DNA of 63,851 bases, counting the filler, from Candidatus Zhuqueibacterota bacterium (lineage in GTDB: Bacteria; BS750m-G25), in assembly GCA_016783505.1 (NCBI GenBank). It is 4 parts of 4 records of this genome, joined end to end, with 100 filler letters (N's around TTAATTAATTAA, not from the genome) between each part and the next. Parts side by side here need not be neighbours in the genome. Positions count along the whole stretch, not along the records: positions 1 to 27,683 come from JADHWK010000034.1; 3 more parts are not named here. One strand, written 5' to 3'. The notes under the pieces were generated by a model. The model was not told where the DNA came from, ran no database searches, and worked only from the letters and a program-made list of their open reading frames with translations. This document shows, piece by piece, positions 1-9,833 of the stretch. Positions within the stretch are counted from its first letter, which is position 1. Every line of letters starts with the position of its first letter. The position numbers and the translations under genes are program-made.

Positions 1-2111
1 TCCGGCTCCGGTTTGACGATGGGCGGGGAGATGGCATCCTTCCTCATCAGAAAGACCCAGCGAATGCTGGTCCGTTTGGTGTGCTTCTCGGGACCGCCCA
101 ACCAGTAGGGGTCCAGCATGGCACGGGAGGCGGCCGAGGCCTCGAAGCAGTAGGGTACCCCCCGATCGAGGCGGCAGTTCTCCTCCCGCATGCAGGGCTC
201 ATTGGCGCACTCCTCCTTTTTAGTGATCACGTTCTCGCACCTGGAGCGGTCAAAGAGCGGGGCCAGGTCAGGGTAATGTTTGACGAAGTTGGTAGGCATA
301 TAGAACTTCCGTTCCGGGGTATCTGCCAGCGCCCCTCCCCCCCCGTAGCGGACGAACACCAAGTCGTTGGAAACCAACTTCGCTTCAGGTTGTCGAAGTA
401 AGGAAGCAAAATGGGTGGACTTACCCGTCCCCGGGGGAGCAATCAACAGCAATCCCTTTCCGGCAAAATCCAGGCAGAAGCCCCGGATGGAATGGAGGTC
501 GAAGGACCGTTCCGAGATGTCAGCTACCATCCCCAAAGCCAGGCTCCGGAGCTGACCGTAAAAGGCGGATTTGAAAAGGACGGCCGTCTTGGATTCCGAA
601 TTGTAATAGGCCCGGGGCTCGCGACCGGGAATCCAGCCCACTGCGTAGATGATCCCGTGGGGCTCCAGATCGGCCTCCAGTTGGGCCGGATACCAGTTCT
701 CGATCCAGAAATCATAAAGGTGGGGAAGGTTGGTCCTTAACTGAATAATCACCCCGGCGATGTTAGCGTTCCATTCATAGTAGGTCTCGTAGGACAGGTG
801 CGCCTCGGCCTCGGCCACCAGGGCATCCCGTATCTGGGTGGTGACCTCGGGCTCGGTCTCTACAAACGAGCGCCTCACGGTCATGGTGTTATTCAGGGCC
901 ATCACCTTCGCCTTTCGGGTGGGCTCCAGCTTTGCCATCGCGGCGATAATCCGGTCCATCGCCTCCTCCAGCTTTTCCATGGAGGTGGCATAGGATATGC
1001 GGATATGAGAGTCAGCCCCGAAGGCATCCCCGGGGACGACGGCCACCCTGGCGTGCTTTAAAAGATAGTAGGCCAGGCCGTAGGAGTTGCGGATCTGCGT
1101 CCCCTGGAATTCTTTATTGAAATAGGATGAAAAGTTAGGGAATAGATAGAAGGCCCCCTGGGGCTCGGGGCAGGAGACCCCGGGGATCTGCCGCAATCGC
1201 TGCAGGACGAAATTCCTCCGTCGCTGAAACTCGGCCACCATCTTGGAAATCTCCGTCTGGGGACCCCGGAGGGCCTCCAGGCTGGCCATCTGGGATATGG
1301 TGCAGGCGTTGGAGGTGTTGTGGGATTGGACCTTGGCCATCCCGGCGATGAGCTCCTTTGGCCCAGCCGCATACCCGAGCCGCCAGCCGGTCATGGAATA
1401 GGCTTTCGACACCCCATTGACGATAACCGTTCGCTCCTTAACCTTGAGGCCCAGCGAGGCTAGCGAGACGAAGCGAAACCCGTCGTAGACCAGCTTCTCG
1501 TAGATCTCATCGGCAATGATCACTAGGCCCTCCTCTACGGCGATCTTAGCGATTTCTTCCAGCTCCTCCGGCGAATAGCCCATCCCGGTGGGATTTGAGG
1601 GGTTGTTCAAGATCAAGGCCTTGGTGCTGGGGGAGATGGCAGCGGAAAGCTCCTCAGGGGTGATCCGGAACCCGTTCTCCTCCTTGGCGGGAATGATGAC
1701 CGGATTGGCCTTGGCCAGGCTTACCATCGGGGGGTAGGAGACCCAGTAGGGAGCGGGGATGATGGCCTCCTCACCCTTATTGAACAGGGCCACCGACAGG
1801 TTATAAAGACAATTCTTGGCCCCGCTGGAGACGATGATCTCGTCGGGTCCGTACTCCAGCCCGTTGTCCTCTCTGAGCTTCTGGATAATGGCGGCCTTAA
1901 GCTCCGGGAGGCCCTCGTTGGCCGTATACTTGGTGTAGCCGGCGTCAATGGCCCGCTTGGCCGCCTCCCGGATGTTCTCCGGGGTGGGAAAGTCGGGCTC
2001 CCCCACCGACAGATCCACCACGTCTATCCCCTCGGCCTTCATAGTCTTGGCCTTAGCGGTGATCTTCAGAGTGGGCGAAAACCCGATTCGCTGTATTCTG
2101 TCTGCTAACAT
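1..2111 (-). CDS. Class I PLP aminotransferase (aspartate aminotransferase-like) fused to a C-terminal PEPCK/HPrK-like P-loop domain; runs off the window start
   Basis: Hand translation from ATG at 2111: MLADRIQRIGFSPTLKIT..VGEPDFPTP..NNPSNPTG..DEIY..SKAYSMTGWRLG..RISYATS, then continues with no stop through ..APPGTGKST..VSNDLVFV..CENV..SRAML to base 1 (>700 codons). Absent from the ORF track because there is no stop in the window. Confidence 0.92.
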   Translation of the reverse strand, partial: MLADRIQRIGFSPTLKITAKAKTMKAEGIDVVDLSVGEPDFPTPENIREAAKRAIDAGYTKYTANEGLPELKAAIIQKLREDNGLEYGPDEIIVSSGAKNCLYNLSVALFNKGEEAIIPAPYWVSYPPMVSLAKANPVIIPAKEENGFRITPEELSAAISPSTKALILNNPSNPTGMGYSPEELEEIAKIAVEEGLVIIADEIYEKLVYDGFRFVSLASLGLKVKERTVIVNGVSKAYSMTGWRLGYAAGPKELIAGMAKVQSHNTSNACTISQMASLEALRGPQTEISKMVAEFQRRRNFVLQRLRQIPGVSCPEPQGAFYLFPNFSSYFNKEFQGTQIRNSYGLAYYLLKHARVAVVPGDAFGADSHIRISYATSMEKLEEAMDRIIAAMAKLEPTRKAKVMALNNTMTVRRSFVETEPEVTTQIRDALVAEAEAHLSYETYYEWNANIAGVIIQLRTNLPHLYDFWIENWYPAQLEADLEPHGIIYAVGWIPGREPRAYYNSESKTAVLFKSAFYGQLRSLALGMVADISERSFDLHSIRGFCLDFAGKGLLLIAPPGTGKSTHFASLLRQPEAKLVSNDLVFVRYGGGGALADTPERKFYMPTNFVKHYPDLAPLFDRSRCENVITKKEECANEPCMREENCRLDRGVPYCFEASAASRAMLDPYWLGGPEKHTKRTSIRWVFLMRKDAISPPIVKPEP

Positions 2112-2133
2112 TTTAGTTCCAATATAAATTTTC

Positions 2134-2209
2134 TGCTAACGTCTCCACTGTTTGTGAAGTGCCGAAGGCATTTGCGCGAACGTAGTGATCCACAAACAGC
2201 GTGTTATAC
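2134..2209 (-). other. attC-like integron recombination site
   Basis: Minus strand GTATAAC-ACG-CTGTTTGTGGA...TTCACAAACAG-TGGAGAC-GTTAGCA: AAC/GTT core ends around an imperfect inverted repeat. Confidence 0.7.
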
Positions 2210-2327
2210 GCATTGCGTTTATTTCCCGTTTAGCTTCATCCCATCCATATGTTCACTTAAAATGGGAAGTTTTTTATCATGCCAACAAGTTATAATATAG
2301 ACTATTGTGATTTCCAATGACGCGCAT

Positions 2328-2365
2328 TTTGGAGTGCATCCCGAAGCTTCGGGATGCACTCCAAA
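2328..2365. repeat. Perfect 38-bp palindrome with TCCCGAAGCTTCGGGA core (dispersed REP-like family)
   Basis: TTTGGAGTGCATCCCGAAGCTTCGGGATGCACTCCAAA equals its own reverse complement; related cores near 4664, 4951, 8640, 11720, 29250, 40668, 52579, 53856. Confidence 0.9.
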
Positions 2366-2562
2366 CAGAAGTCAATAGTATAAGCTGCAAATCGCTAAAA
2401 ACGATTCAAAAGACATAATTTAATTTTTACAATAGCTTAGTTATAATCTTAAATCTTCAACGAGTAATGATAAACCACTATCCATTTTTTGTATGTTATT
2501 ATAACCGTCCTTTCCAACCCAGTCCTGATTTAGATAACTAACAACGAGTACTATGGGGTTGG

Positions 2563-3147
2563 TTAGCGTACTCGCTGCCAATCAGATTCGGCCAGGTAAA
2601 CTTCCAATTCTTTCCACATAGCCTCGAGGTTACAGCGCATCACGATAAGATCCTGCCTTTTACCACCCATGTCTTTCACGTACTCCGGTAGCATGGCTTT
2701 CTCGCGAAAACCAAGCCTTTTAAAGATCCTGTGAGCCCCGATCTGTGGCCGCATCATCTTCACGATAACTTCCTCAACATTTTCCTTCACCGCCAGCAGG
2801 TAGAGTTCACGCGCCATCAACATACCCAACCCTTTGCGCTGAAAGGGGCGGGCCACGATCAACCTCAGTTCTACCATGTGTTCTTTCCAGCCCGGGGCTT
2901 CCAGCTCCAGCGCTCCGTCAGCTACGATCCGGTCATCAACGACAGCTACCAGTCGCTTGACCCCGCAAGATTTCATAGTCTGGATACGTCGCTTGACAAT
3001 CTCACGCTTGGTGACGTCTACCCGAAGATATGCTCGGTCTTCTGGAGGAAGGGCTTGGAAGAAAGCATGGGACCGGTCTATATCCTCTTTCCTCAGCGGG
3101 CGGATGACAACATCACTGCCATCCTTCAGCCTCACTTTCCTTTTCAT
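2563..3147 (-). CDS. GNAT family N-acetyltransferase
   Basis: 194 aa; acetyl-CoA motif VARPFQRKGLG, C-terminal AHRIFKRLGF. Confidence 0.88.
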   Translation of the reverse strand: MKRKVRLKDGSDVVIRPLRKEDIDRSHAFFQALPPEDRAYLRVDVTKREIVKRRIQTMKSCGVKRLVAVVDDRIVADGALELEAPGWKEHMVELRLIVARPFQRKGLGMLMARELYLLAVKENVEEVIVKMMRPQIGAHRIFKRLGFREKAMLPEYVKDMGGKRQDLIVMRCNLEAMWKELEVYLAESDWQRVR

Positions 3148-3201
3148 TACAGCTGTCCTCGGTTTTTATCTATTATACAGCGGGATCCCCAACCCATTTG
3201 C

Positions 3202-4650
3202 TCACCCCTTCTTCCCCTCCCCGCCAGACTCTTTGAGCTCCTTTTCTTCAGAAGTATCTGTTATTTTCTTCGAAGCCGGGAGGTTTTGCAAGAACTTCTT
3301 AATGTCCACCCCGCTCAGGGACTCGATCACGGTGGGCAGTTGTGCTAAAATCTGGGCCACCTGGGCGGTGAGCCGGGAAACCCCGGAAGAGCCGGTCCCC
3401 CCGTCAACCATAACGATCTTATCCACTTTGGACAGGGGTTCGGACACCGCCCGGGCCAGCTCGGGAAGTTTTTCCACAAACATCTGGTAGATGGCCGCCT
3501 GGTTGTATTCCCCCCAGGATTCGGCCTTCTTCTGCATCGCCTCGGCCTCAGCGGCCCCTTGGGCCCGGATGAGCTCGGCTTCTGCTAGCCCCTCCAGCTT
3601 CTTAGCCTCGGCACGACCCTTGGCCTCGGCCTCCAATCGGAACCGCTCCGCCTCGGCTTCGGCTTGAACCTGGTAGCGCTTGGCATCCGCCGCCTTCTTG
3701 ACGGTGGACTCCAGCTCCTTCTCTTTCCTCAGGATCTCCTTCTCCTCGACCTTAATCCCCCCCTCCTTTTCCACCAGCTTGACCTGGTATTCTTCACGCT
3801 TCAGTTGCCGGCTAACCCTCTGTTTTTCCAACTCGTAGGCCAGGTCGGCCTCGGCCTTGCGCTGGTTGATGGCAGCCTGGTACTCGGCCCGTCGGGTCTC
3901 GTAGTCCCGACTGGCCCGGGCGATCTCGGCCTCGGCCTGGAATTTGGCGATGTCACCCTCCTTGCGGGCCTGAGCTGACTTAATGGTGGCATCCCGGTCG
4001 GTCTCGGCCTGGGCCACCGCCGCATCCCGCTTCACTTGGGCGATCCGGGGTCTCCCCAGCGCCTCCAGATAGCCCTGGGTATCGCTGATGTCTTTCAAGG
4101 CAAAGGAGAGCACCGCCAGCCCCATTCGGGCAAAGTCGTCAGAGGCTGAGGTCATAACCCGTTGGGCGAACTCCTCCCGCTGCTGGTAGATCTCCTCAAC
4201 CTTCATAGACCCCAAGACCGCCCGGACGCATCCCTCCAGGATCTGATTGGCGACATCTTTAATCCCTTCAGCCCCGGTCCCTAAAAACTGCTCCGCCGCC
4301 TGACGAATGGAGTAATCGTCCCCACCGACCTTTACCTGGGCTACCGCCTCGGCGATGATGTGAACCCCCTGGGCGGTGAGCACCTCCGGGGTTTTGATGG
4401 GGATGGTGAACACCCCCAGAGGGAGGACCTGGGCGCGCTCAAGCAAGGGCAGGACGAAGGTCCCCCCACCGATTCGGTAGCGGTAGCCGATTTTTTTCCG
4501 GGTCCCATCTGGGTCAGTCACCGTCCGCTTCCGACCCCCGGAGACGATCAGCACCTCGTTTGGGCCCACCTTCCGATATTGAGTAGCCAGGGCCAGCAGG
4601 ACTAGACCCACCACTACTACAATAATACTGAGCCAGATATACCATTCCAT
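3202..4650 (-). CDS. Flotillin family (SPFH/band 7) protein
   Basis: N-terminal TM helix, YRKVGPNEVLIVSG, SPFH domain, long AEA-rich coiled coil, VSEPLSKVDKIVMV. Confidence 0.93.
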   Translation of the reverse strand: MEWYIWLSIIVVVVGLVLLALATQYRKVGPNEVLIVSGGRKRTVTDPDGTRKKIGYRYRIGGGTFVLPLLERAQVLPLGVFTIPIKTPEVLTAQGVHIIAEAVAQVKVGGDDYSIRQAAEQFLGTGAEGIKDVANQILEGCVRAVLGSMKVEEIYQQREEFAQRVMTSASDDFARMGLAVLSFALKDISDTQGYLEALGRPRIAQVKRDAAVAQAETDRDATIKSAQARKEGDIAKFQAEAEIARASRDYETRRAEYQAAINQRKAEADLAYELEKQRVSRQLKREEYQVKLVEKEGGIKVEEKEILRKEKELESTVKKAADAKRYQVQAEAEAERFRLEAEAKGRAEAKKLEGLAEAELIRAQGAAEAEAMQKKAESWGEYNQAAIYQMFVEKLPELARAVSEPLSKVDKIVMVDGGTGSSGVSRLTAQVAQILAQLPTVIESLSGVDIKKFLQNLPASKKITDTSEEKELKESGGEGKKG

Positions 4651-5000
4651 CTCTCCTCCTCTGTCCCGAAACTTCGGGACGATATAACCTAAACATAAAA
4701 TTGGATTACATCATCAAATTTACCTAAATATATTCAAAAATATAATTCTTTGCAACACTTTTCTCAACTTTTTATCGTAAAACTATTGCTTTTTATCCTC
4801 ATATGTATTAATTTTACAATGACAAAACCGCACAACTGAATTGACACCGTCAGTCAGGCGGCCTTCGGTCATCGTATCAACAATTAACAGATTAGTTGTA
4901 AAAGTAAGTGTATAAAACATTGACAGTAACCGTCTCACGAATGACGAAAGTCCCGAAGCTTCGGGATTTTAAAGGTGCCAAAGTTTAGTATAGGATAGAG

Positions 5001-6839
5001 ATGAGTAACGGTATCTACGAGGAAGAAGACTCTCAGAGGTTCTATGAGAACCTGACTCCACTGCTGAACGGCCCTAACATTCAGCACGTCAATCTCAAAG
5101 GGTTAAAATCCAGGGCGATCAAGACCGCCACCCGCACCCGGTTCGGATCCTACGGCTGGCGGTCGGCGGTCTCCAGCCGGATAGCCCCTCTGACCGTCTA
5201 CCTGGGGTCCGAACCGGTAAGATTACCCAAGATGACCGCGGTGCAGAAGAATATCGTAGAAAACGCCCCGGAGGAGTTGCATAAGGTTCTCCATCTGATG
5301 AGGTCCCTCCCTTTTGTTCACCTCCGCCGCCAGATGGGAAATAACGACGAATACAATCCCATCTGTAACCTCTATGTCTCGGTGGCCGATTCGAAAAACC
5401 ACCGCATTGCCTACATGTGGGGCCATACCCTCCGAAAACCGGACAAAAAGCCCGGGCCCGAGTTCACCATGATCCACATTCCGGAGGAGCATCATCTCAG
5501 GCAACAGGTCCTGGTTTTGCCGGAATATAATCTAAACATCGCTCTGGGGACCGACTACATGGGGGAGGACAAGAAGGGGTTCTTAAGACAGGCCATGTGG
5601 TATGCTGACGAACACGGCATGCTGGGCCTGCATGCGGGGACGAAGCTGGTGACCGTCCGTGATGCCAAAGATGACCGATTGAAAAGATACGGGGTTTTCC
5701 TGTTCGGCTTGACGGCCACCGGAAAGTCCACCTGGTCCTGTCACCCGTTGGGATTGGATCCAAACAGGGGGGAGTGTACCCAGGTGATCCAGGACGACAT
5801 CGTCTTTCTCAAAAAAGACGGCTCGGCCCTGGGCACGGAAACCGGGTTCTTCGTCAAGACGGATGTGGAGAAGGGCCTTCAGGAGGCCATGTATAATGCC
5901 TTGATTGACCGCACTGCTCTGTTCGAAAACGTTATGATTGATGCCGCCGGGAACCCCGATTTCTTGGACGAGCGCTTGTGCGCCAACGGCAGGGCTGTTA
6001 TCCAGAGGGATAAGTTAAAAATTAAAAGGGGACGGCGGCTGGTGGGGATCAGTTCCAAAAGCATCAACATGCCACCCTTAGACGACCTTGACGGTTTGAT
6101 CTTCGCCTTCATCACCCGCAGGAACACCATCATGCCCTTCGCCCAGGAGCTCACCCCGGAGCAGGCGTTGTTGGCCTATCTATGGGGGGAATCCACCCAC
6201 TCCTATGCCTCCCAACCGCTCAAGGCCGGGGAATCGGTGCGGATTGTAGGGACCGACCCCTTCATCATCGGCTCCCGGGCCAGGAAGGTGAACCGATTCT
6301 ATGACATCATCATGGATTTATTGGACAGATTTCCGGGCAAGGTGAGGTTCTATCAGTACAACACCGGCGGCGTCGGTGAGATCCTGGAGAGCTATGTGGA
6401 AGGGGAAATCGAAAAGAAGAGGGAAATCCAAAAGGTCACCCGGGTGCCCATTAGCGAGATGGCCGCTATTCAGCGCGGGGATCTGAGGGGGACGAACCGA
6501 TATGAAAAAGGGAGGTTTGGAACCCATGAGATCGTGGCCTGTGAGGACAGGGGTCTTAAAGATTTTGACCCCAAGAAATTCTATTCGGAAGAGCAGATTG
6601 AATCCTATCTGGGGGACATTGTCAAGGGGCGGCGAAAGTTTACTGAGGAGATCGCAGACGAGGGGCTGAACCCGGAGATCATCCGGGCGGCGGAAAGATC
6701 CTTCGAGGTTTCCCGACGGGTAAAAACCAAACCTCCACCCGAGGGATTACCCCAAGGGGAACTAGCAGAATCAGGGGAAGAGATTCCTTGGAAACCGAAA
6801 ACCCGACCCCCCCGACCCCTGGGCAGGAGATACAGATAA
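5001..6839 (+). CDS. pckA: Phosphoenolpyruvate carboxykinase (ATP)-family protein
   Basis: YMGEDKKG, LGLHAG, P-loop FGLTATGKST, IQDD, FENV, NGRA: the PEPCK catalytic motifs in order. Confidence 0.85.
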   Translation: MSNGIYEEEDSQRFYENLTPLLNGPNIQHVNLKGLKSRAIKTATRTRFGSYGWRSAVSSRIAPLTVYLGSEPVRLPKMTAVQKNIVENAPEELHKVLHLMRSLPFVHLRRQMGNNDEYNPICNLYVSVADSKNHRIAYMWGHTLRKPDKKPGPEFTMIHIPEEHHLRQQVLVLPEYNLNIALGTDYMGEDKKGFLRQAMWYADEHGMLGLHAGTKLVTVRDAKDDRLKRYGVFLFGLTATGKSTWSCHPLGLDPNRGECTQVIQDDIVFLKKDGSALGTETGFFVKTDVEKGLQEAMYNALIDRTALFENVMIDAAGNPDFLDERLCANGRAVIQRDKLKIKRGRRLVGISSKSINMPPLDDLDGLIFAFITRRNTIMPFAQELTPEQALLAYLWGESTHSYASQPLKAGESVRIVGTDPFIIGSRARKVNRFYDIIMDLLDRFPGKVRFYQYNTGGVGEILESYVEGEIEKKREIQKVTRVPISEMAAIQRGDLRGTNRYEKGRFGTHEIVACEDRGLKDFDPKKFYSEEQIESYLGDIVKGRRKFTEEIADEGLNPEIIRAAERSFEVSRRVKTKPPPEGLPQGELAESGEEIPWKPKTRPPRPLGRRYR

Positions 6840-6862
6840 AATTACCATCAAATTCCACAATC

Positions 6863-6899
6863 AAAAAAAGCCATCGGAAAACTCGCCGGTGGCTTTTTC
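6863..6899 (+). terminator. Rho-independent terminator after pckA
   Basis: AAAAAAAGCCATCGG-aaaactcg-CCGGTGGCTTTTT hairpin with U tract. Confidence 0.8.
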
Positions 6900-7051
6900 T
6901 ATATCAACACATCAGTAATGACGGCAGATTACAACATCCACCGCGAGGGAGGAGTTTTTATGGTCACGGCAAAGATAGGAAAGATCAAAAGTAAGATCGC
7001 TGCTTCCCTTATCAATCAGAAGAACAGGTTCTATGATATATTAAAAATTGT

Positions 7052-7080
7052 TTGACTTTTAAAATTTTTTACATTATATT
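7052..7080 (+). promoter_or_regulatory. Sigma70-type promoter of the DUF5678/protease pair
   Basis: TTGACT-17 bp-TATATT. Confidence 0.65.
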
Positions 7081-7104
7081 ATTTTAAAAATGGAGATCGA
7101 AATT

Positions 7105-7356
7105 ATGAAAACTCAAAATGTCCAGCTTCCCAACCCTGCGCCAAAGAAGTATTGGGAAGATAGCCGATGGGCGCATGAGCATTCTGTAGAGATTTCCGAG
7201 CGGTATCCTAATCAATGGATAGCGATTTTAAACAAAAAGGTTATTGCTGCTGGTAAAGATGGTTCCAAAGTAGAAAAGAACGGTGCTGAAAAAGCAGGCG
7301 ATCAGGAATTCGTCATCTTCTTTGCTGAAAAGGGAATCCATATCTATGGAAATTAA
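7105..7356 (+). CDS. DUF5678-like small protein
   Basis: W..EH..EI.ERYPNQWIAILNKKVIAAGKD pattern; GGAG RBS before ATG 7105. Confidence 0.75.
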   Translation: MKTQNVQLPNPAPKKYWEDSRWAHEHSVEISERYPNQWIAILNKKVIAAGKDGSKVEKNGAEKAGDQEFVIFFAEKGIHIYGN

Positions 7357-7783
7357 TCTCGAATTTGAGACAAAGATTGACCCGGAGTTTCTTGCTGCTG
7401 GCATTCCTGTTCGTCTTATACGATTGCTTGCTACCCTTCAATTTCTAACAAGCGAGGGTTGGAGCCGCAGATACCAGGGAATCATTGATACTGGCAATCC
7501 AATTTCTGTCATTCCACATTTCATTTGGAACAATGCACAGTTAAAATGGATTTCATCAGAAAAAACGAAACTTTATGGCATCGGTTCCGCTGGTGTATGG
7601 GGTAGGTTAGCAGAAATGACAATAACCTTCTCCGATGAAAAGCGGGTATCTCTACCAATTAGTCTCAAAGCCCACCTTTTAGACGATAACAGCGTTCCCC
7701 TCCTCATCGGCTTTGAAGACGTCTTGACTTCCCTCAAATTAGTAAGCGATTACAAAGAACAAAAGGCTTATCTTAAGTGGTAA
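7346..7783 (+). CDS. Retropepsin-like single-domain aspartyl protease
   Basis: IIDTGNP catalytic motif, GIGS flap, C-terminal LLIGFED; start overlaps the upstream gene. Confidence 0.8.
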   Translation: MEINLEFETKIDPEFLAAGIPVRLIRLLATLQFLTSEGWSRRYQGIIDTGNPISVIPHFIWNNAQLKWISSEKTKLYGIGSAGVWGRLAEMTITFSDEKRVSLPISLKAHLLDDNSVPLLIGFEDVLTSLKLVSDYKEQKAYLKW

Positions 7784-7932
7784 ATAGAAGCAAGCATATT
7801 GCCCCAAAAACAGAAAATTGGATCAGTTTGTTGGCTTTTTCATTTTAACACATCTAATTTTGTTTTGATCCTCACTAAGGTTGGTTCCTGCATAGCAATA
7901 AAAAGTAAGGCGAAACCCCGGGCTCTACCGGT

Positions 7933-8100
7933 GGGATTGCCCGAAGGGGAACATGCAGAATCAGGGGAAGAAATCCCCACGCCTACGGGTTGGGAAAGCA
8001 AATCAGACCCCCGCGACCCCTGAGCAGGCGATACAGATAAAATAACCGACGAATTTCACAATTAAAAAAGCCATCTATTAACTTACCGATGGTTTTTTTT
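7933..8100 (+). repeat. Diverged duplicate of the pckA 3' end and its terminator (copy of about 6743-6899)
   Basis: GGGATTGCCCGAAGGGGAACATGCAGAATCAGGGGAAGA..GATACAGATAAAATAACC..AAAAAAGCCATC..GATGGTTTTTTTT aligns with 6743-6899. Confidence 0.9.
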
Positions 8101-8315
8101 GAATACTGCTACCAACTTTAACGTCGTTTGTCCTTGAAACCAGCTGGGGGGTTAACTTTTTCCCTGGGTTGCTGAACTGCTTAATTCTTATCTCATATGG
8201 TAAATGATCTTCTCGTGCCGGCTGCAAAATTCGTATTTACTCTTGAGTTGAGCATGGATAAGTTCTGACTGCCAGTGAGTATTTAGCAACCCACCGGGTT
8301 TAGGAGTGGGACTTT

Positions 8316-8510
8316 TCAGCCCCAGGCAATAATCCTGAGCACCCGCACCCTGTCCTCCTATTTCAACTCCCTTTTGGGCTCTTCACCAGGATAGACAATC
8401 CGGCCATTCACACTGAAGATGACAGCGTTTAGATTTAAGTCCAGGTGCTTAATAAGGTCTTCAATGGTAACCTTTTCGCTAATCTCTATCTCTTTCATCC
8501 TAGACACCAT
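8316..8510 (-). pseudogene. ThiS/MoaD sulfur-carrier remnant
   Basis: ..TIEDLIKHLDL..VNGRIV..ELK*EDRVRVLRIIAWG*: internal TAG, and the terminal GG is changed to WG. Confidence 0.75.
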
Positions 8511-8541
8511 TACCGCATATTGTCCGAAGCTAGAACCAGAT

Positions 8542-8813
8542 ACTAAACTTTGGCAAATTTTATAAAGTGCAGAAAAAAACCACCTATCTGTCCTGGGACA
8601 GATAGGAATCAATTCCTAATCTTATGTTTCCTATAGTAATCCCGATAAATCGGGATGATGTGTCCAATCCAATTTGTTGGATTTTTAAAGAGAAGTTTAG
8701 GATGGTAATTGATTACCATCTGGGGGTTAACCGAAACCCAAAAGTAAATTTAAATCGTTTCAATGGCTTATCATTCTGATTCAGCCTAAAAACAATTTTT
8801 GCCAAAGTTTAGT
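8542..8813. mobile_element. 272-bp MITE with 16-bp TIRs and 5-bp target duplication
   Basis: TIRs ACTAAACTTTGGCAAA / TTTGCCAAAGTTTAGT; CAGAT on both sides (8537-8541, 8814-8818); homologous copy at 53668. Confidence 0.85.
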
Positions 8814-8993
8814 CAGATACATACTGTTGGCGGCCGTACCTAAACTTTATCTTATCATATCCCCATTGACTCGCCAGAGCGTTTCCGACATTCTTTGATC
8901 CTGGGAAAGGCTTGTTTCAGTTGAACTGCTAAATGACCGAGCAAAATGAGGCAAGGCACGAAGTGTCGCAGTGTTGCTCTTCGTCCGCCAACA

Positions 8994-9833
8994 CTAGGTT
9001 GTCTCGTTTGGTTTGATTCCACAAACCTTTATACTTATAACCGAACTTGCAACTTCCTTCACTTTCTCAGATGGTATTTTTAAATTATCAATGAGCGCCT
9101 TTGCAGTTGGATCATTAGCCATAAACTCGATAGGGAAAGAAGTCTCATCAACTATGTTGACTTCATGAAAACCAGCCTCTCTTATCGCTTCTATGTACTC
9201 GTCCTTTAATATTGCACCGGAAAGGCAACCGATATATGCCTCAATAGAATTCTTTATGAAATCAGGAAGTTCCTTCAATAAAACTATATCAGAGATCATC
9301 AGCCTACCACCTGGTTTCAGCGCCCTGAACGATTCCATGAAAACCCCTCTTTTATCGGGTGAGAGGTTGATAACACAATTTGAGATGACCACATCAATAG
9401 AATTATCAGCAACTGGTAGATTTTCAATCTCTCCGAGCCTGAACTCTACATTTCCGTAGTTGCCTTTCTGGGCGTTTTCTCTCGCCTTTTCAATCATCTC
9501 TGGTGTCATGTCTACACCGATAACTTTTCCATTTTTCCCAACTTTATCAGCAGCAAGAAAGCAATCGAATCCGGCACCGGAACCAAGATCAAGCACAGTC
9601 TCACCTTCGCTCAAAGAGGCAAGAGCGATAGGATTCCCACAGCCGAGGCCTAAATTTGCCCCCTCAGGAACGGCTTGGAGCTCTTCTTCCGTATACCCTA
9701 TCGTCTTACTAATATCCTGTGCTAAATCAGTACTTCCACAGCAGGAATCAATAGGAACGCAACAGGAGCTATCCTGTTTGGCAATTTTGGCATAGCCCTC
9801 TCTTACGACTTTTTTTGTCTCTTCTTTCCTCAT
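8994..9833 (-). CDS. arsM: Arsenite S-adenosylmethionine methyltransferase
   Basis: CC..CC N-terminus, LGLGCGNP, VLDLGSGAGFD, ISNCVINL, YIGCLSGA; RBS GGAGGAG before ATG 9833. Confidence 0.92.
   Translation of the reverse strand: MRKEETKKVVREGYAKIAKQDSSCCVPIDSCCGSTDLAQDISKTIGYTEEELQAVPEGANLGLGCGNPIALASLSEGETVLDLGSGAGFDCFLAADKVGKNGKVIGVDMTPEMIEKARENAQKGNYGNVEFRLGEIENLPVADNSIDVVISNCVINLSPDKRGVFMESFRALKPGGRLMISDIVLLKELPDFIKNSIEAYIGCLSGAILKDEYIEAIREAGFHEVNIVDETSFPIEFMANDPTAKALIDNLKIPSEKVKEVASSVISIKVCGIKPNETT

Follow-up and report, generated by a model that had tools for sequence, protein, structure and literature searches.

The locus described here lies at one end of a 63,851-nucleotide stretch of DNA from Candidatus Zhuqueibacterota bacterium BS750m-G25 (assembly GCA_016783505.1), which joins four parts of four records of this genome and is referred to below as the window. 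A minus-strand open reading frame (ORF), open at the window edge, encodes an aspartate aminotransferase (AspAT) and continues in the same frame into a second module, here called module X. On the minus strand the genes are ordered flotillin, GNAT acetyltransferase, fusion, and a gene for a phosphoenolpyruvate carboxykinase (PEPCK) is transcribed divergently from the flotillin gene (Table 1). Module X was found to be a reduced form of PEPCK, and it is tied genetically both to AspAT and to one clade of PEPCK. The positions of key residues were confirmed by re-translation of the window.

Table 1. Features of the AspAT-X locus, in window coordinates
Feature	Position	Strand	Basis or remark
Fusion ORF	3..2111	-	703 aa, open at window edge
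AspAT domain, residues 1-395	927..2111	-	PF00155, 1j32
Pyridoxal phosphate (PLP) lysine K236	1404-1406	-	Motif alignment to 1j32
Nine-residue insertion FNKEFQGTQ, residues 331-339	1095..1121	-	Gap relative to 1j32
Linker EPTRKAKVMA, residues 396-405	897..926	-	Residues 400-403 with pLDDT <50 in the full-length model
Module X (mini-PEPCK fold), residues 406-703 in the window (ends at 780 outside)	3..896	-	Model, Foldseek, hhalign
Stretch with R522 (546-548) and R543 (483-485)	483..548	-	Places of the PEPCK active-site lysine and metal histidine
P-loop APPGTGKST, residues 558-566	414..440	-	Translation check
Cys cluster C625-x9-C635-x4-C640-x5-C646-x8-C655	147..239	-	Inserted relative to PEPCK
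GNAT acetyltransferase gene	2563..3147	-	Pfam Acetyltransf_3 + Acetyltransf_1
Flotillin (SPFH/Band 7 + Flot) gene	3202..4650	-	Pfam Band_7 E 2.4e-27, Flot E 1.4e-8
Divergent-clade ATP-type PEPCK	5001..6839	+	Start 2.9 kb from the fusion start codon

All 703 residues encoded in the window are identical (100%) to a database protein of 780 residues (P0004), which supplies the missing 77 C-terminal residues; an identical 780-residue protein is recorded on other contigs too. The gene therefore encodes a two-module protein of 780 residues, in which AspAT (residues 1-395) is joined by a short flexible linker to a module X of ~375 residues. A preliminary description of this DNA had read a complete class I aminotransferase running in frame into more than 300 further residues, and this was borne out. 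PF00155 covers residues 30-388, and the AspAT-X junction is in frame in all 118 full-length homologues, which come from several phyla, and in all 80 genome loci compared, so that homologues do not occur only as separate genes. These 118 proteins, from which the residue counts for X in the fused family are taken, are the best 120 of 1185 database matches minus two shorter than 700 aa. An artefact of assembly or sequencing, that is, a stop or frameshift missed between two genes, has next to no chance of being the explanation. Besides the conserved junction and the identical protein on other contigs, a contig of sequencing run X2 matches positions 397-2132 throughout (0 differences, 0 gaps). The four sequencing runs compared list no indel within 1-2111, and no sign of a stop or frameshift was seen at the junction, including positions 900-950, where the preliminary description had placed the possible break. 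Run X2 may itself be a source of this DNA, and the independent evidence is therefore the in-frame junction in the 118 homologues. As far as sequence data allow, the artefact reading is refuted.

The full-length monomer model had a mean predicted local distance difference test (pLDDT) score of 90.5 and a predicted template modelling (pTM) score of 0.55. Such a low pTM despite the high mean pLDDT indicates that the relative orientation of AspAT and X is not fixed in the model, which shows two well-folded predicted modules on a short flexible tether, without confident mutual packing. A fixed AspAT-X interface accordingly finds no support in this model.

The N-terminal module is likely an ordinary, active-looking class I AspAT that interconverts aspartate and oxaloacetate. 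Pfam PF00155 matched residues 30-388 at positions 2-361 of its 361-position profile (E 2.5e-80; 270.8 bits, cut-off 19.7). Among solved structures, AspAT 1j32 was the best match (E 4.4e-117). Residues 1-395 align end to end with the class Ib AspATs (E 4.4e-117 to 1e-93), the close solved proteins being 1j32 of Phormidium lapideum, the rhizobial AatB/AatA (6f35/6f77), the Thermus enzyme 1bjw and the plant prephenate/aspartate aminotransferase 5wmh. The PLP lysine motif is common to both sides of this comparison, with SKAYSMTGWR, which contains K236, aligning with AKTYAMTGWR of 1j32. Residues N173, D201, Y204, K236 and R371, which we take to be the conserved PLP-binding lysine and its Asn/Asp/Tyr/Arg set, are invariant among 88 fused homologues. 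The NCBIfam aspartate transaminase models scored below their cut-offs (NF004769, 445.9 against 617 bits; NF041091, 418.4 against 550), so that aspartate as the probable substrate is suggested by the closest solved AspATs rather than assigned. The fusion differs from the class Ib enzymes in the nine extra residues at 331-339 and in a C-terminal extension of 385 residues. Next to the insertion, I340, R341, N342 and S343 show little or no variation across the fused family.

Module X escaped the usual domain searches. No Pfam family scored above its cut-off for it, PF01293 had no match to P0001 at E<=1 nor to the stand-alone X relatives described below, and a single-sequence search of X against PDB sequences gave nothing meaningful (best E 2). 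BLASTP of the fusion protein against the PEPCK of the window was marginal (E 0.023). At the profile level, an X-family alignment of 41 rows (A1, headed by residues 396-780 of P0004) was matched by hhalign to an alignment of 24 members of the neighbouring PEPCK family (A2) with 98.0% probability (E 2e-13, 227 columns). The A1 profile also matched E. coli PEPCK 2py7 over nearly its full length (E 4.4e-4, profile 29-379 on chain 97-464). An AlphaFold (AF2) model of X had a pLDDT of 93.0 and a pTM of 0.91, and when it was compared with the PDB by Foldseek, ATP-PEPCK filled ranks 1-34 (top match 2pc9_D, E 1.1e-18, TMq 0.74, TMt 0.57, 433 columns). GTP-PEPCKs followed at ~1e-13, and all 46 matches listed were PEPCK. 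X is thus a reduced PEPCK that covers both lobes and descends from ATP-PEPCK, with ~375 residues in place of ~512-612. The PEPCK landmarks that the preliminary description had picked out in order represent real homology by the A1/A2 alignment, and residues 400 onward take the PEPCK fold, not that of HPr kinase.

HPr kinase was rejected as the family of X. The sole Pfam hint in X was Hpr_kinase_C, at 12.1 bits against a cut-off of 33.3. The C-terminal domain of HPr kinase/phosphorylase (PF07475; 1jb1, 1ko7, 1knx) belongs to the same P-loop superfamily, and its P-loop and the following strand align with X, which accounts for the weak Pfam matches. The alignment extends over only ~55 residues, the A1 profile matched 1jb1 over the P-loop only (E 1.1e-5, profile 147-201), and there was no HPr kinase among the 46 Foldseek matches listed. 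ATP-PEPCK PckA (PF01293; 2pc9/1j3b/1xkv of Thermus thermophilus, 1aq2/1oen of E. coli, 1ii2 of Trypanosoma cruzi) matches X in its whole fold and in the order of its motifs. X keeps the Tyr of YxGExKK, the P-loop lysine, the second Asp, E-N-V and the C-terminal N-x-G loop of these enzymes. It differs from them in its size, in the absence of a Pfam match at cut-off and in its position behind an aminotransferase. In addition, Arg-Ser stands for the Lys pair, Arg for the metal His and Asn for the first Asp, conservation is lost at the substrate Arg and at the P-loop Ser/Thr, and a Cys-rich insert separates E-N-V from S-R-A.

Residue by residue, the A1/A2 alignment pairs FYGQLRS of X with YMGEDKK of the PEPCK, placing R522 and S523 of P0004 at K191 and K192 of PEPCK P0002 (F517/Y518 at Y186/M187, Q520 at E189). 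HSIRG pairs with GLHAG (R543 at H211), APPGTGKST with GLTATGKST, SND with QDD (N582-D583 at D265-D266), CENV with FENV (E626-N627 at E309-N310) and SRA with GRA (R663 at R331). The altered lysine pair, metal histidine and single aspartate noted earlier are thus Arg522, Ser523, Arg543 and Asn582, and they are kept across the fused family: R522 in 116 of the 118 homologues, S523 in 111 and R543 in 108, while position 582 is N in 78 and D in 29, next to a D583 found in 114. K213, H232 and D269 of E. coli PckA are presumably its Mn ligands. Judged from the alignments, the manganese-site residues of PEPCK are replaced throughout the fused family, from which we infer that X has lost carboxykinase catalysis; PEPCK requires an active-site Mn2+ plus Mg2+ with the nucleotide, according to a 2020 review (PMC8100219).

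Two other landmarks of the preliminary description stood only in part. The P-loop is intact in the window protein and degenerate across the family, where G561 (117/118) and K564 (114/118) are kept and position 565 is T in 43, M in 30, S in 29 and A in 9 members. SRA does align with the GRA of PEPCK, but its R663 is present in only 45 of the 118. The inserted Cys cluster, in contrast to these, has the spacing given earlier and is near-invariant, with C635, C640 and C646 in 118/118, C625 in 117 and C655 in 114. Most of the invariant residues of X map to former active-site positions, Y518, E600-R601-K602, E626-N627 and D667-P668-W670 included. Mean pairwise identity is 0.57 for X and 0.67 for AspAT, and 79 of 375 columns are at least 95% conserved, compared with 110 of 395 in AspAT. 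X is under strong selection.

The neighbouring PEPCK scored 91.8 bits with PF01293 (cut-off 26.5) and fell below the NCBIfam cut-offs (NF006821, 297.2 against 369 bits; TIGR00224 pckA, 26.9 against 590). Solved canonical PckA proteins match it at E 3e-6 or worse. Its motif set is complete (YMGEDKKG, P-loop K242), and Y186, G188, E189, K191, K192, H211, K242, D265, D266, E309, N310, R331 and N454-T455-G456 are invariant in the 24 members of its family. By these scores and motifs it belongs to a divergent clade with the full catalytic motif set. The earlier claim of an intact, divergently transcribed PEPCK 2.9 kb away was therefore confirmed, but the enzyme is of this divergent clade, and the flotillin and GNAT genes lie in between.

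At E<=1e-3 the search with the X region returned 1185 proteins, and the best 120, with few exceptions, are ~776-790 aa long and carry PF00155. Their source labels are Zixibacteria, KSB1, Gemmatimonadota, Latescibacterota, Aminicenantes, Acidobacteriota and TA06, and record labels add Calditrichota to the bacteria with AspAT-X. The fused protein is annotated as 'aminotransferase' and the unfused form as 'hypothetical protein' or without a name. From 491 relatives in species-representative genomes, 80 loci were kept, and clustering of their ORFs showed that only the fusion, flotillin and PEPCK recur in at least 56. PEPCK lies inside the flank in 39 of the 44 loci with at least 4.5 kb of upstream and 2 kb of downstream sequence, either directly downstream on the same strand (22), divergent upstream as in the window (14) or upstream on the same strand (3). 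Linkage to this pckA subfamily, which the preliminary description had proposed to look for among homologue neighbourhoods, was thereby found. Flotillin is upstream in 63 of the 64 loci with at least 1.6 kb of upstream sequence and is the most constant neighbour of the fusion, above PEPCK. The flotillin of the window scored 96.5 bits for Band_7 (cut-off 23.6) and 35.3 for Flot (cut-off 27).

Co-occurrence was surveyed in 121 genomes of the phylum of G002, which are related, so that the counts are not independent events. A strong X match (300-450 bits) was present in 12 of them, in open frames of 782-824 aa in 11 cases and in a 446-aa frame on a short contig in one. PEPCK of the window type was found in 11 of these 12 (ten at 850 bits or more, one in pieces with TGA stops) and in none of the 109 genomes without the fusion, where the best matches reached 452 bits at most; the sample includes two genomes marked as unpublished, G029 and G054, neither of them positive, and without these two the figure is 0/107. 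All 12 fusion genomes have a flotillin gene beside the fusion.

Two observations from this survey concern PEPCK itself. The PEPCK in pieces (G047:C1:1412375-1414234) is split into four matches, two of them with internal TGA stops, and may be a decaying gene or an assembly error. ORFs of 544-566 aa in G013, G077 and G114, genomes without the fusion, scored ~440-450 bits with the neighbour-PEPCK profile and ~40-44 bits with the X profile, and look like a further divergent PEPCK clade.

Module X also occurs fused to PEPCK. An exhaustive search of representative proteins with X gave 181 clusters at E<=1e-3, and in one protein, P0146 (899 aa), a complete PEPCK_ATP domain (Pfam E 1.9e-48) comes after X. 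A search with the X part of P0146 yielded 104 proteins, 88 of them X-PEPCK (~880-913 aa) and 16 AspAT-X. Where named, the X-PEPCK labels are Hod-, Hel-, Frey- and Lokiarchaeota, Bathyarchaeia, Altiarchaeota, Hydrothermarchaeales, Planctomycetes and others. The PEPCK part falls in the divergent clade of the window neighbour, to which it was 41-44% identical over 522-559 residues in all ten proteins tested. With three shorter fusions dropped, the X-PEPCK modules carry the same two arginines (R522 in 83/85, R543 in 84/85), keep K564 in only 35/85 and are gapped over the Cys segment in 84-85 of the 85. They thus differ from AspAT-X in that X precedes PEPCK instead of following AspAT, in lacking the Cys segment and in a more decayed P-loop. 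The gene order (39/44), the co-occurrence (11/12 against 0/109) and these natural X-PEPCK fusions link X to PEPCK, and a genetic tie of X to AspAT and to one PEPCK clade is shown.

Unfused X, by comparison, mostly keeps the Lys, His, Asp-Asp, GK[ST] and Arg of PEPCK, as seen in 31 representatives of 340-430 aa and 30 of 440-640 aa. Position 522 is K in 17 and R in 11 of the shorter group and K in 22 and R in 5 of the longer; position 543 is H in 18 and R in 7, and H in 22 and R in 6, respectively. A metagenome scan with P0146 gave 36 loci: 4 with X-PEPCK, 7 with PEPCK alone and 25 with stand-alone X, the last ~42% identical to the X of the window. In 20 of the 25 the opposite strand carries, upstream of X, an AspAT gene whose product is 35-42% identical to the AspAT half of the window protein; in the remaining 5 the upstream sequence is shorter than 1.8 kb. 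The flanks of these 25 loci held no flotillin and no PEPCK, and flotillin was likewise absent from the whole set of 36. Genes next to stand-alone X, among them EMG1/Nep1 and one for a PDCD5-like DNA-binding protein, point to an archaeal origin of these contigs. All 17 full-length unfused ORFs have K522, H543, [GA]TGKST, D582-D583 and R663 and no Cys cluster. A separate AspAT gene beside unfused X indicates that the AspAT-X partnership is older and wider than the fusion. In a FastTree tree of 100 rows (18 of the 118 AspAT-X, 18 of the 85 X-PEPCK, 29 + 27 unfused and 7 archaeal ORFs), with residues 61-470 of the window PEPCK as outgroup, the AspAT-X and X-PEPCK modules were sisters in one clade with an SH-like support of 97. 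Given the quick method and the long outgroup branch, we treat this tree as a lead, and it agrees with the shared Arg substitutions. Arg-substituted X is a derived state, which coincides with a PEPCK of the divergent clade, either separate or fused.

Several single records stood out among the unfused relatives. Two archaeal-type contigs, L099 (3127-7056) and L097 (4563-7065), carry an unfused X whose catalytic set is intact, in a divergent pair with its own AspAT gene, and at L099 an M3 peptidase gene lies between the two. The unfused relative P0169 (754 aa) has an intein (Pfam Intein_splicing, residues 216-393) ~20 residues past its GTGKS P-loop, a hint at a functional importance of the P-loop region among the unfused relatives. 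The ESM Atlas gave, as leads only, archaeal clusters of ~390-aa hypothetical proteins with scores of 0.95-0.96.

Since most of the invariant residues of X map to the old active-site cleft, we read X as a module that still binds a ligand there. We hypothesize, giving the proposal an even chance, that X is a non-carboxykinase partner or sensor module at the node of aspartate, oxaloacetate and phosphoenolpyruvate (PEP). The AspAT module would make oxaloacetate from aspartate. X would be non-catalytic and would bind an anionic ligand in the old cleft, where two arginines stand at the former metal place; this ligand might be a nucleotide, PEP, oxaloacetate or phosphate. X would then link AspAT, through physical contact or through regulation, to the divergent PEPCK of the neighbouring gene, so that oxaloacetate from aspartate could feed PEP formation or have its supply matched to it, or the same in the opposite direction. 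The AspAT-X, PEPCK and flotillin genes would form a unit behind a membrane-anchored flotillin.

Contact between X and PEPCK is a putative part of this proposal; a complex prediction of X (A1) with PEPCK (A2, residues 1-580), run without controls, scored 0.31, 0.00 and 0.02 (mark 0.32), which counts neither for nor against binding. Several findings weigh against the proposal. A rigid AspAT-X channel finds no support in the monomer model with its pTM of 0.55. The co-occurrence sample is not phylogenetically independent. PEPCK was absent nearby at five of the 44 well-flanked loci (L015, L030, L039, L047, L080), and conversely three PEPCK-alone loci (L084, L088, L091) have at least 5.8 kb of upstream sequence without X. 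When the genomes behind six PEPCK-less loci were searched with PF01293, G126-G129 were found to carry the divergent type elsewhere. The chromosome-level genome G003 has the fusion and only a canonical PckA, far away, and G109 has the fusion and no PEPCK that the PF01293 search could find; the X of these two genomes is as conserved as the rest (64% and 51% identity). The X of the window, with GTGKST, D583 and R663 intact, could itself have activity of some kind. Lastly, flotillins of 53-54% identity occur in six sampled genomes without X (G006, G068, G011, G101, G030, G040), so that flotillin is not dedicated to the fusion, and a dedicated flotillin was discarded as a candidate.

The conservation of X in G003 also bears on an alternative in which X is purely an allosteric sensor of AspAT for ATP/ADP, PEP or oxaloacetate, makes no contact with PEPCK, and shares its gene order merely by belonging to the same pathway. 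The residues conserved at former ligand-contact positions (Y518, R522, R543, K564, D583, E600-R601-K602, E626-N627) would suit such a sensor, as would the equal conservation of the fusion in G003, which lacks the divergent PEPCK, and the pairing of unfused X with AspAT, with no PEPCK in the flank, at 20 of the 25 archaeal-type loci. We nevertheless consider it unlikely, because X is itself fused to PEPCK in 88 clusters with the same two arginines, window-type PEPCK was confined to fusion genomes in the 121-genome sample, and the monomer model contains no confidently predicted X-AspAT contact surface that could relay a signal.

It is quite improbable that X is still an enzyme, namely a Mg-dependent P-loop kinase or ATPase with an arginine-based site that acts on oxaloacetate, aspartate, a related compound or a protein. 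HPr kinase, a member of the same superfamily, functions with no manganese site, and inteins, such as the one ~20 residues after the P-loop of one relative, usually sit in sites of active enzymes. The X of the window keeps GTGKST, D583, R663, E600-R601-K602 and N760, X is nearly as conserved as the AspAT domain, and its close unfused relatives keep the full Lys/His/Asp-Asp/P-loop/Arg set (17/17). Across the clade, however, a catalytic function is hard to reconcile with the losses at the P-loop and the arginine: position 565 is Met or Ala in 39 of the 118 fused members, the P-loop Lys is kept in only 35 of the 85 sister X-PEPCK modules, and the equivalent of PEPCK R331 is kept in 45 of 118. The kinase option of the preliminary description is thus unlikely for the family, although the P-loop of the window protein is intact.

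The near-invariant cysteines, and a flotillin upstream in 63 of 64 loci, more constant than PEPCK, would fit a third alternative, in which X serves as a Cys-cluster metal or redox sensor, or as a handle for flotillin-driven recruitment of AspAT to the membrane. This is very unlikely to be its main role, as the sister X-PEPCK modules lack the Cys segment, which therefore lies outside the shared function, the 36 metagenome loci (X-PEPCK, unfused X or PEPCK alone) yielded no flotillin, and similar flotillins occur without the fusion.

Taken further, the partner or sensor proposal leads to a speculative picture that we hold to be doubtful as a whole. The Arg form of X would be the adaptor of a membrane-associated aspartate-oxaloacetate-PEP assembly, its metal-free cleft holding oxaloacetate or sensing PEP/ATP, and would dock the AspAT dimer on a PEPCK clade that is inactive without X, the clade joined to X in Asgard and other archaea and found next to AspAT-X in many uncultured bacterial phyla. 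Unfused archaeal X, with its full catalytic set, would represent a novel, minimal enzyme of carboxykinase type that acts together with AspAT.

Few metabolic junctions have been studied as thoroughly as the PEP-pyruvate-oxaloacetate node. No description of this fusion or of the module was found in the literature searched, subscription journals and supplements lying outside the search, and broader searches gave general reviews and unrelated papers; the earlier remark that no characterised fusion of this kind was known thus still holds. The available part of the 2020 review lists ATP, GTP and PPi (pyrophosphate) types of PEPCK and mentions no accessory or fused module there (PMC8100219). On the evidence of sequence comparison, X appears to form an as yet undescribed protein family that derives from PEPCK and has a new architecture. 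An analogy may be offered by pseudoenzymes that partner active paralogues, a general concept treated in two reviews (PMC5106787, PMC10211241), in that a catalytically altered paralogue is kept under selection beside or fused with an active relative; for X, the sequences show the loss of catalytic residues. An unannotated PEPCK-derived module is joined to an oxaloacetate-making enzyme in bacteria and to an oxaloacetate-using enzyme in archaea, Asgard lineages and Bathyarchaeia included, and this arrangement suggests a so far undescribed connection between oxaloacetate-forming and oxaloacetate-consuming enzymes. If X docks or regulates, this would be a natural, genetically hard-wired coupling of enzymes around an unstable intermediate, and reconstructions of amino-acid fermentation and gluconeogenesis would change in these uncultured groups.

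Some further observations were made around the fusion gene. No relative of the GNAT gene was present in the 80 related loci, and this gene is peculiar to the lineage of the window; the related loci mostly have 0-100 bp between flotillin and fusion. The AT-rich gap between the GNAT and fusion genes contains, at 2328-2365, a perfect palindrome of 38 bp (two 19-nt arms without a spacer), which occurs once within the window. Contigs of three runs break or fold back exactly at this palindrome. A search of positions 1-9000 against Rfam found nothing. At the 3' end of the PEPCK gene (6733-6868, a basic C-terminal tail) the runs differ by small indels at 6784-6796, and one contig in each of two runs repeats the segment 6733-6868 at a distance of 922 letters, which looks like strain variation or a local repeat. 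Just downstream of PEPCK, a DUF5678 ORF (7090-7356) overlaps the start of a 166-aa ORF without a Pfam family (7283-7783), and the two may form a two-gene module of unknown function.

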